The notes: generated from the sequence alone by a model not told the origin. A stretch of 64,000 bases of DNA from Acidobacteriota bacterium (GCA_016935015.1 JAFGRT010000004.1:1985-65984); one strand, 5' to 3'. Counted from the first letter of the stretch, positions 2 to 7,345 are shown. Numbers and translations: made by a program.

Positions 2-1468
2 GAGACGGAACAGGGCAATCCCGCCCTCTTCCGGACATACGACCAGGCCATTCATCCCGGCTTTCTGACCGATGTGTTCACCAACCGCACTTTCTACGAC
101 CAGCGCAACGGCGAATTGCCGGTCCACCGGCTGGGCCAGGGGAGCAAGGTGTCCCACACCGGCAAGGCCCACTACAATTTCAACGATCGCTCCAGCGTGG
201 CCGGCGCCATCATCTACTCTGTAGCCGACAGCGACTACACCGGCCTGGAGATGACGTCCAAGTACTACAGCGGCCGGTTCACCACCATGTTCCAGCGCAA
301 CATCGTGTTCAATGCCCGTATCCGCTACACCGACCTTGAAAATGACGTCACCTTTGTCGATCTGCCCCAGCGGCCGGCCGTCGCCGGACCCCAGGCCGGC
401 GTCACCTATTCCCAGGCCTACCCCGACTTCGGTGACACCTCGTTCACCCGCTTCTCCACCCTCGACCGCAACAACACCGATCTCGAGCTCGACCTGAAAT
501 TTCCGTGGCAGCGGCACCGGTTCACGTTCCAGTACGCCTTCCGCAACATCGACCGCGAATACTACGGCAACGACGCCACCAAGAAGCACCAGTTCACGGC
601 CGCCTTCCGCAGCGACCCGCGCCGGTCCTTCGCCGGCCATATTATCTACAAGGCCGAGTTCGCCGAGAACCCGTTCGTCAATTTCCAGGCGGCCATCGCC
701 CCGGCCCTGCAACCCGTCCCCGCTGTACCCGGGTCGCCGTTCCCCAACCTCCAGTACTTTGAGATCTACGAGGCGCGGCAGGCCAACCTGTCCAACCAGC
801 CGACGGACATCCACAACATCGACCTGGCCGGCTCCTGGAAACCCCGCAACAATGTGGGACTCAATTTCAGTTACAACTACCGCGACTCCAAGAACGATGA
901 TCTCAACTACTCTGACTGGAGCCAGAGCATTCATCACGTCAACGCCAATCTCTGGTATGTGCCGGAAGAGCATGTCTCCCTGACCGCCGGATTCAATTAC
1001 AGCAAATACAAATCGGAGACGCTATTCACACAACCCGTCTGGAATGGCTGAGGGGCCGGAATTACCGCGGGCCAGTTTGGCGCGCTTTATGACCCCATGG
1101 ACAGTGAGGGCGAATTTTTCACCGCTTTTGCCAACATTTATTTCATGCCGGTCGAGAATCTGACCATCTTCGCCGAATTCTGGGCCAACAACGCCACCCA
1201 GGATATGGGCAATATCTCCATCGACCTCAACCAGGTGGTGGGTACACCCTCTGGCTTCGACTACGTCATGTTGGAGGAACTCGGCAAGCTGTCGGAACTC
1301 GATGTCATGCAGATCCGCGGCCGCTACGGGATGGAGTATGCCTTCAAGAGTGGCCTGTTTATCAAGGGCTATTTCGAGCACATCCACTACGATGACAACC
1401 AGCCGTACCTGTTCGACGCCACCGGCGACCTTTACCGCGTAGCGGCTTTCGCCGGCTACCGCTTCTAG
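2..1468 (+). CDS. Outer-membrane beta-barrel protein, 5' end cut by window edge. One reading frame is open from nt 2 to 1468 apart from a single in-frame TGA at 1049-1051 (possible pseudogene, sequencing error or readthrough)
   Basis: ORFs 74..1051 and 1097..1468 share a frame, and the frame is open back to nt 2. The protein is Tyr/Phe/Asn/Asp-rich with alternating hydrophobic and polar residues typical of beta-strands. It ends in Y-R-F, the C-terminal aromatic signature of OMP barrels. Both halves have high GC3. Confidence 0.5.
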
Positions 1469-2542: not shown

Positions 2543-3187
2543 TTATTGCGCGGTTTCATCCGCCGGGGGCTGCTGCATCATGCGCTCGATCACTTCGAGT
2601 CGCTGGCGAACCATATTGAGATCGATTTCGTCGGTTCCGGTATCGAGAAGCCTTGACCAGTATTTTTGGGCGCCGGCCAAATCATTCTTGTCGTGCAGCA
2701 TAATCACGCCCAGGTTGTACAGGGCCTGCGCCTGATTGGGATCCTTCTCGAGAACTTTCTCCAGGCCGTCGATGGCCCGATCGATTTGCTGGACGTACTT
2801 GTAAGAGGTGGCCAGGTCCACCTGGACAAATAGGTTGTCCGGATTCTGCTGGAGTGCCATTTCGTAATACTGTATCGCTTCCTTGTATTTTTTGGTGTCG
2901 TAATACAGATTGCCCAGGGCGATCATGGCGTCCCCATTTTCGGGATCCTGGGCCAGGGCCTCCTTATAGGTCTCGATCTGCAGATCCATCACCTGCTGCT
3001 TTTGCTGCTGCTCCTGCTGCTGCTGGCGCATCTGGTCGACATCCATACCCGGCATCCCCCCCATCCCCTGCGGCATGGTCATGGGCTGCTGATGACCCAC
3101 CGTATGCTGCTGCAGGCCGACGAGATACCCGGCCACGAAACCGACCACTACACCCGCCATGAGAAGTAAAACCGCCGTTCTATTCAT
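2543..3187 (-). CDS. Membrane-anchored TPR-repeat protein with a Gln/Met-rich linker (CcmI/NrfG-like architecture)
   Basis: N-terminal TM helix, a poly-Q/M low-complexity linker, then about 4 TPR repeats (ALGNLYY..., AIQYYEMAL..., ALYNLGV...). It lies downstream of the cytochrome genes on the same strand. Confidence 0.7.
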   Translation of the reverse strand: MNRTAVLLLMAGVVVGFVAGYLVGLQQHTVGHQQPMTMPQGMGGMPGMDVDQMRQQQQEQQQKQQVMDLQIETYKEALAQDPENGDAMIALGNLYYDTKKYKEAIQYYEMALQQNPDNLFVQVDLATSYKYVQQIDRAIDGLEKVLEKDPNQAQALYNLGVIMLHDKNDLAGAQKYWSRLLDTGTDEIDLNMVRQRLEVIERMMQQPPADETAQ

Positions 3188-3297
3188 GATTTCACCTGTA
3201 GAAATGGAATCACATCAGATGGAAGGGATGGGAGACCCTGCGGTCCGATGCCCCTAATTGGATGAAACCACAATCGTCCGGATTCAAGAAGTCCAGC

Positions 3298-3335
3298 AAA
3301 AAAAAGGCTTTCCTCGCCCGGAGACGAAGAAAGCC
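3298..3335 (-). terminator. Putative intrinsic terminator between the bd-like operon and the TPR gene
   Basis: On the minus strand, GGCTTTC/GAAAGCC stem (about 16-nt loop) followed by a T8 run. Confidence 0.45.
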
Positions 3336-3369
3336 ACGAAAGAATCATATCCTGTATTTCCGTAATCCC

Positions 3370-4422
3370 TTACACCGCTTCCGCTGCCTTGCGCACCAGC
3401 CAGACAACCGTGGCCAGCCCGGCGACCAGGACCACGAAAAAAACGATCATGGGCGAATACTGGGGGACTTCCTTCAGCATGTCCAGGGAATACACCTCCT
3501 GCAGGTAGCCGGATCGGACGAAGGCGCGCATGAAGGTCATGACGTACACCAACGCGACGACGTGCACCGCCGCCAGGTAAACCTTCTTGCGGGCAGCGGT
3601 CCACAGCACGCCAATGGCCAGCATGAACCCCGCCAGCAACAGGATAGTGGCCAACATGTTGTCACCCATAAACATGGTCATCACCGGCTTGTCCAGAGAC
3701 AACAGAAACCAGAAGCCGATGGCGATCTGGATAAAAGTCAGACCGGTGAAGACGTTCATGCCCACGCCGATGGCCAACTCCGCCAGCTCGGGATCCCGCT
3801 TTTCCCTGAACTTGCCGAACAGGGCGACAACCAATCCGCCCACGGCCGTACCGCCGACGATGAAATGCAGGTAGCGCGGCCAGAGAGTAACGTCGGCCAG
3901 GCTGAGAATGGTACCACTGGAGTTCTGGAAATACCGGCTCCATTCCTCGGGGCGCAGCATCAGGGTCATGTTGTTGGAAAAGAGGAAGGCGATGCCCAGG
4001 AAAATAAGGACGGCCAGGCCGATGATCCATTTTCCGGCTTGACCCAGCGCCGCGAACTTGAAATCGAAGAGGTACGTGCAGTAATAGGCCACGATGAGCA
4101 ACAGGATGATGCTCAGCCAGAAAACACCCATGAGAATGGAACTGGTGTAGATGAATTGGCCGTACAGCACCTGGACGAACAGGAGAGGGGCCACGCCGAA
4201 ATTGATGGTGAAGGCAACGATGAGCGGCAACACCTTGGCCAGCTCCTCGGAGAGCCGGGTCCATGATTCACCGGTCCGGAAACGGGCGTACAGGGCAATG
4301 ATCGCCGATCCCAGCATGGCGTTCATCAGAATGATGTGCAGGGGAAAGGTCAGAAGCAACAGAAACTGGAAAAAACCCCAGGCAACAGGAATGGTGTCCG
4401 GAGTGGGTATCAGTTCGCTCAT
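3370..4422 (-). CDS. Polytopic membrane protein, probable subunit II (CydB-like or CydA'-like partner) of a cytochrome bd-like complex
   Basis: About 9 predicted TM helices. Its ATG overlaps the stop of the upstream gene (ATGA), which implies translational coupling. Confidence 0.6.
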   Translation of the reverse strand: MSELIPTPDTIPVAWGFFQFLLLLTFPLHIILMNAMLGSAIIALYARFRTGESWTRLSEELAKVLPLIVAFTINFGVAPLLFVQVLYGQFIYTSSILMGVFWLSIILLLIVAYYCTYLFDFKFAALGQAGKWIIGLAVLIFLGIAFLFSNNMTLMLRPEEWSRYFQNSSGTILSLADVTLWPRYLHFIVGGTAVGGLVVALFGKFREKRDPELAELAIGVGMNVFTGLTFIQIAIGFWFLLSLDKPVMTMFMGDNMLATILLLAGFMLAIGVLWTAARKKVYLAAVHVVALVYVMTFMRAFVRSGYLQEVYSLDMLKEVPQYSPMIVFFVVLVAGLATVVWLVRKAAEAV

Positions 4423-6170
4423 TGATCACCTGCCTTGGACGCCGCTGCCAGGTAATCGGCCAACGCGTCCTTCTCCGACGTTGAGCCGTCGTAATCCGCC
4501 ATCATTTCGTTGATGGCACTCAAATTGTCCAGTGACTGCCGGATTTTCACCCGGTCCCAGCCGCTCATGCCGGGCTGGATCTCAGCCAGGCCATGACACA
4601 TACTACAATTTTCCTCAAAGAGCACAGCGCCATCCGGCGGGACGCGACCACCCGTAAGCAGAAACTGCGTCAGGGCCTCCTTCTCGGCTGCTGTCCCTGT
4701 GAAATCCTCCATCATCTCATTCAATTGACTCAGGTGATCCAACGCCTCACGGATACGGTCGGCATCCCAGCCGGCCAGGGATGGGGCGATGGCATCATAC
4801 CCATGACAGGCCGAGCAGTTCTCTTCGAAGATCCGTGCTCCCTGGTCCGCCATCGATTCCCCTTCCGGTGAGGCCATCACCATTTCCTTGCCGTGCAGGC
4901 CGCCCACCAGGTAGGCGGCCAATGCCTCCGCCTCGGCATCCGTACCGGCGAAGGGCGGCATGAAGTAGCGCTTTTCATGGATGGTCTTGATATAGCTGAC
5001 CATGGCCCGATAGCTCATGGACTCCGTCAAAGGCACGATATCGTTGTTCCAGCCGTTCACCGTGTGGCAAGCGTAGCACTGATGCCGGAAAATATCGGCC
5101 CCTGCTTGCTGCAGGTTTTCCGGCGTCACTTCCTTGACCCTCGTCCATTTGGCGGACGCGAGAAAACCGTCGGCACCGGCTTTCTCCAGGTCGGCGGCCG
5201 TCAGGCCGTTGGAGTATATCACCTGGTTGACCACGAAGGGACGCCGGGCGGCCTCCCGAGTCCATTCGAAGGCCCCCAGAAAAATGAAGGCGGCCATCAT
5301 GACCACAAAGGCAACGGGTTTCACGTTGAGAGCGGGACGGATCAATGTCAGGATGAGGCTGAGGATGATGACGACGCCGATGGCGTACAGGCCGTAGTCC
5401 AGGGCCATCTGGATGGTGGGCGACTTGCCCGCCACCAGATCCCGGGCCGGCGCCGGCAGCGCAGTCAGATACCAGTAACCGAACGGAATCGAGGCCAGAA
5501 ACGATACGAGTACCCACCAGCCGGAAAAACGGGTCATGGTGTTTTTGAGTTCCCCGTCCCGGAGGAAGGAGCACGTCAAAAAAGCGTAGACGCCGGCCAA
5601 CATGGTGGCAACAAATGTACGGAAAAAGAGCGAAGGCCAAAAGGTGGGATTGAAAAAACCGATCCAGAAATTGCCGCTCTCCAGCCATGCGCCGGGGCTC
5701 AGCATAAAGGACAGTATACCGTTGATAATGAACAGACTGGCCCAGGCAGCACCGAAATACACCCAGCCCACCGCCTGATGGGTGCCGGACTTCATCTTGC
5801 CGAACGTATAGAAATAAACGAACGCAGCGACGATTTCCACCAGGAAAAAAACCCATTCAATGGCCCAGCCGAACACGAAATTGTGGATGAGGAGAGAGGT
5901 GCCGCCCGCACTGGCCAGTGCAATGATGAACCAGATCCCCACACCGGTCATGCTGCCGAAGACCAGCGTGATCAGGATAAAGAACTTGGCATGCTTTTTG
6001 GTGAAATCCAGGATGGCCGGGTTGTTGCGCCGCAGCCCGAGGCGTTCGGCAAAAATGAGGTATAGACCGCCGCCCACGGCAAAATGAGACACGAAAACAT
6101 GGGTGATGGCGATCAAGGCAATGAAAAACGCACCGCCGATGGTGGGCAGATACCATACGGGGTAATTCAT
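4419..6170 (-). CDS. Cytochrome bd-family subunit-I homologue fused to a C-terminal tri-haem c-type cytochrome domain
   Basis: Start taken at MNYPVWY because GGGAGG lies 7 nt upstream. The N-terminal roughly 370 aa (about 9 TM) has CydA-like landmarks: ITHVFVSHF (His19 region), GSMTGVGIWF, AIEWVFFLVE (Glu99/Glu107 pair), GTHQAVGW and FEWTREAARRPF (E/R motif). There is no long Q-loop. The C-terminal roughly 210 aa carries three CxxCH motifs (CYACH, CSACH, CSMCH). Confidence 0.7.
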   Translation of the reverse strand: MNYPVWYLPTIGGAFFIALIAITHVFVSHFAVGGGLYLIFAERLGLRRNNPAILDFTKKHAKFFILITLVFGSMTGVGIWFIIALASAGGTSLLIHNFVFGWAIEWVFFLVEIVAAFVYFYTFGKMKSGTHQAVGWVYFGAAWASLFIINGILSFMLSPGAWLESGNFWIGFFNPTFWPSLFFRTFVATMLAGVYAFLTCSFLRDGELKNTMTRFSGWWVLVSFLASIPFGYWYLTALPAPARDLVAGKSPTIQMALDYGLYAIGVVIILSLILTLIRPALNVKPVAFVVMMAAFIFLGAFEWTREAARRPFVVNQVIYSNGLTAADLEKAGADGFLASAKWTRVKEVTPENLQQAGADIFRHQCYACHTVNGWNNDIVPLTESMSYRAMVSYIKTIHEKRYFMPPFAGTDAEAEALAAYLVGGLHGKEMVMASPEGESMADQGARIFEENCSACHGYDAIAPSLAGWDADRIREALDHLSQLNEMMEDFTGTAAEKEALTQFLLTGGRVPPDGAVLFEENCSMCHGLAEIQPGMSGWDRVKIRQSLDNLSAINEMMADYDGSTSEKDALADYLAAASKAGDQ

Positions 6171-6313
6171 TCGCACCTCCCGAATCAATATTCCAAAGAA
6201 ACCGCTCGCGGCCAAAACCCACGCGGGTGGTTCATTATATCAGAACAATTCTTCATTCGGAATAATTTTAAATTTACATGATTTTGGCCATACAAATTCA
6301 AGGAAGCCGGCTT

Positions 6314-6343
6314 ATTATACCGGTTCACGAAAACATCTTTCAA
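6314..6343 (-). promoter_or_regulatory. Sigma70-like promoter for the bd-like operon
   Basis: Minus strand reads TTGAAA, an 18-nt spacer, then TATAAT, about 135 nt upstream of the ATG. Confidence 0.45.
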
Positions 6344-6502
6344 GGGGGAACCCCTCACCCGCATTCCTGCCGGCCGTCCCCGAACCAGCCGGACTCCGGC
6401 GTACGTCGCTCCCGGCCATGGGATTGTCATTAAAGATTGATTCTGATTCGGTTTTCGTGCATCATTACCCGTTGGGCCGTTCGTCTGGAGGAATCGTCTC
6501 GC

Positions 6503-7345
6503 ATGCGCAAAACCATATTGTGGGTTCTGGCCTTTACCATCACCATCGGCCTGGCCATTTATCAGAAAAAAACCGGCCCGACCTGGCCCGTTGATGATAC
6601 GCTGGACACCGGTTCATTGCATGTGGCCTATTCACTGGAACGGAGCCACGGCGGAGAGGGCGATCAGGAAGTCACGCTCCACGTCGTGGACGGCCAGGAT
6701 CTCAGCGGCACCCTGTACTACAAAAGATACCGCACCGAAGAGGACTGGACGCCCGTTGCCATGCTGCGGGTCGATACCAACCTGACGGGTTTTTTGCCCC
6801 ATCAGCCGCCGGCTGGCAAGCTGGCCTACTTTATCGAAATCCAGCATCAGAGCCAGGTGCACCGTTTGCCCGAACAGGGCGAAGTGGTCACCCGCTTCAA
6901 GGGGGACGTCCCTATTTACTGGCTGCTCCCCCATATCGTCCTGATGTTTTCCGCCCTGATGCTGGCGGTACGCACCGGCCTAGGCATCATCTTCCGGGAG
7001 GACATCCGCAAGCTGGTCATCATCGCCTTCTGGTTGCTGCTGGTGGGCGGGATGATTCTCGGACCCATCGTCCAGAAATACGCGTTCGATGAATTCTGGA
7101 CCGGTGTGCCCTATGGCTTCGACCTGACGGATAATAAAACACTCATCGCCTTCGTTTTTTGGGGAATCGCTTTCCTCTTCACCATGCGCGAAGGGAAAAA
7201 GAAATGGAAAACCCTTTCGGTGATAGTGGCCGTAGTGGTGATGATGGCCGTGTATCTCATCCCCCATAGCACCTGGGGTTCGGAATATGATTATTCCCGG
7301 GGGACGGTCGTCACCGGTCAGCGTGCCGACTCCCCGGCGCCATAA
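6503..7345 (+). CDS. Hypothetical integral membrane protein
   Basis: GGAGG RBS. N-terminal TM helix, a soluble segment of about 130 aa, then about 4 C-terminal TM helices. Confidence 0.6.
   Translation: MRKTILWVLAFTITIGLAIYQKKTGPTWPVDDTLDTGSLHVAYSLERSHGGEGDQEVTLHVVDGQDLSGTLYYKRYRTEEDWTPVAMLRVDTNLTGFLPHQPPAGKLAYFIEIQHQSQVHRLPEQGEVVTRFKGDVPIYWLLPHIVLMFSALMLAVRTGLGIIFREDIRKLVIIAFWLLLVGGMILGPIVQKYAFDEFWTGVPYGFDLTDNKTLIAFVFWGIAFLFTMREGKKKWKTLSVIVAVVVMMAVYLIPHSTWGSEYDYSRGTVVTGQRADSPAP

Follow-up and report, generated by a model that had tools for sequence, protein, structure and literature searches.

Two overlapping genes on the minus strand of a 64,000-nucleotide (nt) stretch of Acidobacteriota DNA (GCA_016935015.1, JAFGRT010000004.1:1985-65984; called the window here, at its full length) encode a cytochrome bd-like membrane protein fused to three c-type cytochrome domains (A) and its partner subunit (B). 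We followed up a preliminary description of this locus by profile comparison, structure prediction and synteny, using for close comparison a metagenomic locus, L091 (JGI metagenome 3300027690, contig Ga0209164_1000608, 1..17053), which is fully syntenic with the window and about 88% identical. In 5' to 3' order, the features of the locus are:

6314..6343, minus strand: promoter-like site TTGAAA-18 nt-TATAAT, lying some 144 nt before the start of A and matching 11 of 12 consensus positions
6171..6313, minus strand: 5' leader with the conserved blocks TTCTGATATAATG and AGCGGTTTCTYTGGAAT and the ribosome-binding site (RBS) GGGAGG, the blocks being seen in the alignment with L091 (6000..6252)
4419..6170, minus strand: open reading frame (ORF) of gene A, 583 amino acids (aa), its start preceded by the RBS GGGAGG
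5238..6170, minus strand: aa 1-311 of A, predicted CydA-like membrane domain (OR-C1a) with eight transmembrane (TM) helices and both termini periplasmic
4881..5138, minus strand: c domain 1 of A (proximal, class I), aa 345-430, with C365/C368/H369 and Met404 in YFMPPF; Pfam Cytochrome_CBB3 and Cytochrom_C
4656..4880, minus strand: c domain 2 of A, aa 431-505, with C452/C455/H456 and Met487; Pfam match, residues invariant
4419..4655, minus strand: c domain 3 of A, aa 506-583 plus stop, with C522/C525/H526 and Met557; Pfam match, residues invariant
3370..4422, minus strand: gene B, 350 aa, predicted diverged CydA paralogue (OR-C1b) with nine TM helices and no CxxCH
3296..3335, minus strand: intrinsic terminator after B, 13-bp stem, 4-nt loop, T8 tail, folding energy -23 kcal/mol, z -3.88

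The 583-aa reading frame of A was confirmed by the ORF call and the sequence, and the four CydA landmarks named in the preliminary description are present as ITHVFVSHF (aa 22), AIEWVFFLVE (aa 103), GTHQAVGW (aa 129) and FEWTREAARRPF (aa 301). A GenBank entry of identical sequence, derived from an Acidobacteria metagenome-assembled genome (MAG), is labelled merely 'c-type cytochrome'. Searched against Cyt_bd_oxida_I (PF01654), the profile that the preliminary description had named for this check, A scores above the gathering score (29.9 vs 26.2 bits, E=2.7e-7), the match being limited to aa 17-231 and to the first half of the profile. For more sensitive comparison we built an A-family profile from 105 diverse members (30-60% identity) retrieved by an exhaustive search (867 clusters, E<1e-3). 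Single-sequence hhalign comparisons of the A and B families with E. coli CydA or CydB gave no significant match (E 0.3-0.5); replacing the single sequence by a canonical CydA profile of eight sequences (Escherichia coli plus seven plasmid-borne genes) turned the matches significant, with E=1e-11 and 97% probability for TM1-5, and E=2.6e-5 and 75% probability for TM7-8. An AlphaFold2 (AF2) model of A, computed from 120 homologues (predicted local distance difference test, pLDDT, 87.5; predicted template modelling score, pTM, 0.75), displays the three-dimensional fold of CydA. The preliminary description had staked its assignment on the His and Glu haem ligands, and in the profile alignments these residues do align. 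By sequence and predicted fold, A is a bd-family subunit I that lacks the Q-loop and is fused to three c-type haem domains.

The membrane core differs from the earlier account in one respect: instead of nine TM helices, the AF2 model of A contains eight (aa 13-47, 51-86, 88-121, 128-157, 177-200, 206-237, 251-277 and 284-307). The positive-inside count supports an N-terminus on the outside, which together with the eight helices places the 276-residue C-terminal part of A in the periplasm. Attachment of c-type haem requires a periplasmic location. As had been claimed, the Q-loop is missing. The periplasmic link between TM6 and TM7 comprises 13 aa, and hhalign aligns residue 242 of A to residue 373 of E. 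coli CydA, a skip that leaves no counterpart of the Q-loop. Projected onto E. coli CydA, the functionally relevant positions of A read as follows:

H24: equivalent to CydA H19, canonically a haem d / b595 ligand
E105 and E112: equivalent to CydA E99 and E107, canonically proton channel
H131 and S145: equivalent to CydA H126 and S140, canonically proton channel
E306: equivalent to CydA E445, canonically a haem b595 ligand
R309 and P311: equivalent to CydA R448 and P450, conserved motif
F183: in place of CydA H186, haem b558 ligand lost
G260: in place of CydA M393, haem b558 ligand lost

Conservation across the 105 representatives is high for H24, E105, E112, R184, E302, R305, E306, R309 and P311 (kept in 94-103 of them), and H24, E105, E112, H131 and S145 are each retained in 88-101, the H126 and S140 equivalents varying somewhat within the family. 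E306, present in 94 members, sits in a family-wide ExxRExxR[KR]P motif, whose R309 is found in 99. We regard H24, E105, E112, H131, S145, E306 and R309 as the putative di-haem site and proton-channel residues. The two channel glutamates are separated by six intervening residues, a spacing shared with the Geobacillus-type bd enzymes. With neither an H186 nor an M393 equivalent, the haem b558 site is lost from A, as judged from the alignments, and position 183 is hydrophobic family-wide. Equivalents of K252 and E257 are absent as well.

Exactly three CxxCH motifs occur in A, at aa 365, 452 and 522; they lie in the C-terminal part, which the preliminary description had likewise credited with three motifs and which the topology puts in the periplasm, and Pfam recognizes three Cytochrome_CBB3/Cytochrom_C domains there. 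The proximal c domain is common to nearly all family members, its CxxCH and MPPF columns being at least 90% conserved in 44 diverse members and its CxxCH and Met residues showing no variation among 120 close homologues. Domains 2 and 3 share 56% identity and are thus tandem duplicates. Because each CxxCH is accompanied by an invariant distal Met (M404, M487 and M557 in the 120 homologues), all three can be classified as class I His/Met cytochromes. In this respect A resembles CcoP-type systems, where tandem class I His/Met domains feed a membrane-bound O2 reductase, and its c domains match PF13442 and CcoP chains in the PDB. The analogy is one of role only, as the catalytic subunit of those systems belongs to the haem-copper superfamily and is unrelated to the bd fold.

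The partner subunit follows A immediately. The TGA stop of A overlaps the ATG of B, confirming the ATGA junction that had been read earlier as translational coupling, and the AF2 model of B has the nine TM helices attributed to it, the ninth being C-terminal (aa 322-349) and carrying F328 and G335, both at least 95% conserved. Compared with the A-domain profile, B scores E=1.2e-9 across 275 columns. On this evidence B is a diverged CydA paralogue and not CydB, a point absent from the preliminary description. CydB had been considered as a candidate identity and was rejected, there being no sequence match to CydB; a search of PDB sequences with the B profile returned nothing meaningful. Acidic residues are missing from the channel positions E99 and E107 of B, and so is an equivalent of E445. 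Potential haem ligands are retained: in a set of 131 B-like proteins (25-88% identity), H29 (CydA H19) is found in 130 of 130, H186 (CydA H186) in 129 of 131 and M295 in 129 of 131, and R183, R299 and R303 are near-invariant. Given this near-invariance, B, unlike CydB, may bind haem b through H29, H186 and M295.

Such a cofactor set would open the way to functions other than oxygen reduction. Since B keeps the H19 and H186 equivalents and Met295 in about 130 of 131 proteins, it could hold a second set of b haems, giving a complex of at least five haems that has two redox sites or, alternatively, a wire across the membrane, and whose real job in anaerobes respiring metals and sulfur compounds could be cytochrome c-to-quinone transfer or the reduction of an oxidant other than O2; we consider this extension unlikely. 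The main rival to oxygen reduction is that A-B is no oxidase at all, acting instead as a cytochrome c:menaquinone reductase or menaquinol:cytochrome c oxidoreductase, with b haems in A, and possibly in B, spanning the membrane and the Glu channel serving quinone protonation, in a role comparable to Desulfovibrio Qrc or Geobacter ImcH, CbcL and CbcBA. The near-invariant H29, H186 and M295 of B, hinting at extra b haems without a catalytic channel, fit this idea. The properties of A fit it poorly: there is neither a Q-loop nor a recognizable quinone site, and no K252 or E257 equivalent; the best-conserved residues are the O2-site and proton-channel set of bd enzymes; and the c domains are of the His/Met class I, which is usually of high potential, and not of the bis-His low-potential type found in quinone-linked modules. 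We accordingly place menaquinone exchange well behind oxygen reduction, and return below to the genomic evidence that bears on it.

The transcriptional signals around A and B delimit the pair on both sides. Both hexamers of the promoter-like site are kept in L091 while the spacer has diverged, and TTGAAA-18-TATAAT is presumably the promoter of A-B. The leader block TTCTGATATAATG is possibly a second -10 element, and TTCTGATATAATG and AGCGGTTTCTYTGGAAT could be regulator sites; an Rfam search of the whole window gave no matches, so that a riboswitch in the leader is not indicated. At the other end, none of 200 shuffled sequences folded as well as the terminator, which separates B from the next gene on the same strand:

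2543..3187, minus strand: tetratricopeptide repeat (TPR) protein, 214 aa, one N-terminal TM segment, matching TPR families; downstream of the terminator and probably outside the system

Judged by these signals, A and B are transcribed as a self-contained bicistronic operon with its own promoter and terminator.

Pairing of the two genes is general. To survey gene order we assembled 163 related loci from genomes and metagenomes, the latter scanned with a 13-sequence alignment, covering 1-, 2-, 3-, 4- and 8-haem subtypes. In 148 of these loci an A-like gene adjoins a B-like gene, and the remainder are mostly truncated contigs. Loci with 2, 3 or 4 haems have the order A-B, while the order is B-A in the 8-haem and most 1-haem types. 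Clustering of the neighbours across all 163 loci revealed no conserved third gene, the commonest neighbour family being present in 13. A multihaem cytochrome of about 500 aa is encoded directly after B in 13 Geobacter-type loci, an arrangement that would suit electron exchange with menaquinone, as would a CbcL-like gene near the pair in L091. The latter gene encodes a 670-aa fusion of a Ni_hydr_CYTB b-type cytochrome with a multihaem c part. It lies in L091 beyond the position of the window's left edge, as does a gene for an NrfB-like multihaem cytochrome (320 aa) upstream of the GSU2204-family gene.

The preliminary description had gone further and joined A-B, the TPR protein as a CcmI/NrfG-like chaperone, an ApbE flavin transferase and an outer-membrane protein (OMP) into one periplasmic electron-transfer unit. 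Its TPR protein does have a TM anchor, and scores 43.2 bits against a cutoff of 42 with PF23914 (TPR_CcmH_CycH), thus barely passing among many generic TPR matches; the whole arrangement is, moreover, preserved in L091, the one 88%-identical relative. With the NrfG model, however, the protein reaches 24.9 against a cutoff of 306, and although it follows B, the strong 13-bp-stem terminator lies between the two genes. ApbE and the GSU2204-family gene, the 'OMP' of that description, belong to a separate operon that runs on the other strand and is convergent with A-B. Screening of 82 loci detected none of the TPR, ApbE and GSU2204-family genes (tblastn E<1e-5, at which very remote TPR homologues could escape, these proteins being quick to diverge), and L091 is the only locus where they occur together with A-B. 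Since the neighbour clustering likewise yielded no conserved accessory gene, we reject the extended module, which is largely refuted by synteny and to which we assign only a very small residual probability. A further neighbour, at 6437..7345 on the plus strand, is transcribed divergently from the promoter region of A-B and encodes a membrane protein of about 280-302 aa, which matches nothing in Pfam or NCBIfam and is conserved in L091 alone.

The lineage to which A and B belong, rightly called barely characterized in the preliminary description, has already been named. Murali, Gennis and Hemp (2021; bioRxiv 10.1101/2021.01.16.426971, later ISME J) divide the bd superfamily into qOR, OR-C and OR-N, and define OR-C1a as an eight-helix CydA with no quinol site and a periplasmic haem c extension, and OR-C1b as the adjacent paralogue. 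The OR-C1a row of their Supplementary Table 6 lists F183, H24, E105, E112, S145, H131, L153, Y119, Y121, V77 and W80; A is identical at all eleven positions, in residue and number alike, which argues that the A-B pair belongs to OR-C1. Its other properties agree: an eight-helix CydA-like A with no Q-loop and a periplasmic CxxCH-bearing C-terminus, an adjoining second CydA paralogue devoid of E99/E107 equivalents, and occurrence in the same phyla (Acidobacteriota, Desulfobacterota and Desulfuromonadota). The signature, together with the occurrence of homologues in the same taxa, leads us to infer that A-B is a tri-haem OR-C1a/b pair. The published OR-C1b has eight TM helices, so that the ninth, C-terminal helix of B is a minor architectural difference. 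Members in Table S7 of the same study are mostly of the 8-haem (Desulfovibrionia) and 1-haem types, with a single 3-haem entry, Desulforhopalus singaporensis. Although the 3-haem type makes up only two clusters at 50% identity in our sampling, it is encountered very commonly among Desulfuromonadales, Desulfobulbales and Acidobacteriota. The family as a whole numbers 867 clusters at 50% identity, and no fewer than 592 species genomes contain relatives. In a 2026 structural paper, OR-C is still named solely as a phylogenetic class.

The window thus presents no new category of system; it presents a compact tri-haem example of a named family. The new elements are the limits of the operon, the finding that A and B are generally paired, the Glu equivalent to E445 and the near-invariant potential haem ligands in B. 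Murali et al. left E445 and W441 unaligned for OR-C1a, whereas we align E306 to E445, and they gave no residue table for OR-C1b, in which we find H29, H186 and M295 near-invariant.

Measured against canonical CydAB (E. coli 6rko, Geobacillus 5ir6, Mycobacterium 7d5i), A has equivalents of H19, E99, E107, H126, S140, E445 and R448. It departs from them in lacking the Q-loop, the b558 ligands H186 and M393 and TM9, in carrying three fused haem c domains, and in having a CydA paralogue instead of CydB as its partner. The Q-loop and b558 ligands, which A lacks, also mark the quinol-oxidizing classes qOR1-4a. CydAA' (qOR4a/qOR4b) of Caldivirga maquilingensis is likewise a heterodimer of two CydA proteins whose second copy lacks the channel glutamates and keeps the H19 equivalent; its subunit I, however, retains the quinol site and b558 ligands and has been shown to reduce O2 with quinol, while OR-C1 has neither feature. 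The OR-N bd-like oxidases of Nitrospirota and related lineages share with A-B the missing quinol site, presumed donors other than quinol and a lack of biochemical characterization, but they contain 10 or 14 helices, in most cases with the H186 equivalent retained, carry no fused haem c and reside in operons with other donor modules.

As to function, A and B would form a two-subunit OR-C1 membrane complex that is probably a cytochrome c-dependent O2 reductase. The family, fold, ligand conservation, topology, operon structure and pairing come directly from the comparisons above; the cofactor content, donor and O2 as acceptor belong to the following proposal and should be read as such. A periplasmic cytochrome, soluble or membrane-tethered, would deliver electrons to the outer c haems of A; a periplasmic cytochrome as the donor, suggested before, remains the probable choice. 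The proximal c haem would assume the role of b558 and pass electrons on to the di-haem site at H24/E306, where O2 would be converted to water, the protons being supplied by the cytoplasm via the Glu-Glu channel (E105/E112). As electrons would come from the periplasm and protons from the cytoplasm, the reaction is proposed to generate a membrane potential. The c domains are joined after TM8, at the point where canonical CydA would re-enter the membrane, and B would act as a pseudo-symmetric partner with a CydB-like role toward A. In an anaerobe, the physiological role would likely be micro-oxic respiration or O2 scavenging.

We favour O2, or another high-potential acceptor, because the proton-channel glutamates and catalytic residues are kept and the c domains are of the His/Met type. 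The distribution of the family points the same way, one-haem members being found in aerobes or microaerophiles such as Myroides, Chitinophaga, Paenibacillus and Hydrogenobacter (Table S7, 10.1101/2021.01.16.426971); for the menaquinone alternative, one-haem relatives in obligate aerobes are hard to accommodate. A search of the literature on OR-C1, on bd-like and CydA-like cytochrome c fusions and on the Table S7 locus tags led to a single link, the FdhM operon of Desulfovibrio vulgaris. There, the 1-haem OR-C1a protein DVU2484 is encoded in the five-gene FDH2/FdhM operon (DVU2481-2485). The formate dehydrogenase of this operon is insensitive to O2 and works preferentially with high-potential acceptors, and a role in aerobic respiration has been predicted for it, which we count in favour of O2 or a high-potential acceptor. 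The same locus can be read the other way, as this homologue, which has been detected during sulfate respiration, is encoded in one operon with a periplasmic formate dehydrogenase; together with hosts that are mostly anaerobes respiring metals or sulfur compounds, and rich in menaquinone-linked modules, this keeps the quinone reading in play at the low weight given above. DVU2484 itself is annotated as CfdD, 'FdhM complex, cytochrome c putative', and according to a 2026 review the DVU2481-2485 cluster encodes, among other proteins, a 'cytochrome c oxidase'; neither source mentions the bd superfamily.

Several observations weigh against oxygen reduction by A-B. The hosts are mostly strict or near-strict anaerobes (Geobacter, Desulfuromonas, Desulfobulbales and Acidobacteriota MAGs). 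With b558 lost, the path by which electrons would enter is conjectural, and the alignment of E306 with E445 is only moderately supported (75% probability), at a position that Murali et al. left unaligned. In the literature we found no purification, assay or other biochemical study of any OR-C enzyme, so that both O2 reduction and haem content are inferred. Finally, the neighbourhoods give no consistent oxygen-related signal, rubrerythrin occurring in just seven of the 163 loci.

Some of these points would suit a detoxifying reductase that uses periplasmic cytochrome c to reduce another small oxidant, such as H2O2, nitric oxide (NO) or other reactive species. Peroxidase/catalase-like and NO-handling activities have been reported for canonical bd oxidases, and anaerobic hosts with occasional rubrerythrin neighbours, as well as an active site that keeps its ligands yet tolerates some variation at the H126/S140 equivalents, would be in line with such a function. 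Specific evidence for an alternative substrate is missing, however, and most loci have no regulatory or contextual tie to genes of nitrosative or peroxide stress. We judge detoxification to be less probable still than menaquinone exchange, and retain cytochrome c-dependent O2 reduction as the preferred function of A-B.

Elsewhere in the window, the GSU2204-family gene deserves a comment. The reading frames 74..1051 and 1097..1468 (plus strand) share the same frame and are separated by a single TGA (1049..1051). For the first, the match to NCBIfam NF041027 ('GSU2204 family CXXCH-containing (seleno)protein, part 1') extends as far as the model does, and the second ends in ...AGYRF and resembles an outer-membrane barrel. 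The interval 74..1468 probably encodes one selenocysteine-containing protein split by its Sec codon, although downstream of the TGA at 1049 we found no significant fold resembling a selenocysteine insertion sequence (SECIS) and no Rfam match. At the edge of a ribosomal/SecY/EF-G cluster, ribosomal protein L17 (11945..12556, minus strand) is lengthened at its C-terminus by about 80 aa, among which Lys, Glu and Ala are abundant. The remaining window reflects anaerobe-type metabolism, with a 2-oxoacid:ferredoxin oxidoreductase, a malic enzyme-PTA fusion, oxaloacetate decarboxylase beta and HypD.

All biochemically characterized bd oxidases oxidize quinol. If our assignment is right, a bd-fold enzyme fed by cytochrome c would constitute a third route from the periplasmic cytochrome pool to O2, beside the aa3- and cbb3-type haem-copper oxidases, and this route would operate in supposed anaerobes, namely Geobacter, Desulfuromonas, Desulfobulbales (including relatives of cable bacteria) and Acidobacteriota. 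If the complex instead performs cytochrome c-to-quinone transfer or reduces an oxidant other than O2, the bd fold would have a bioenergetic role that is new to it. In either case, the window contributes two testable refinements to the family, a conserved ligand equivalent to E445 and possible haem ligands in the partner subunit.

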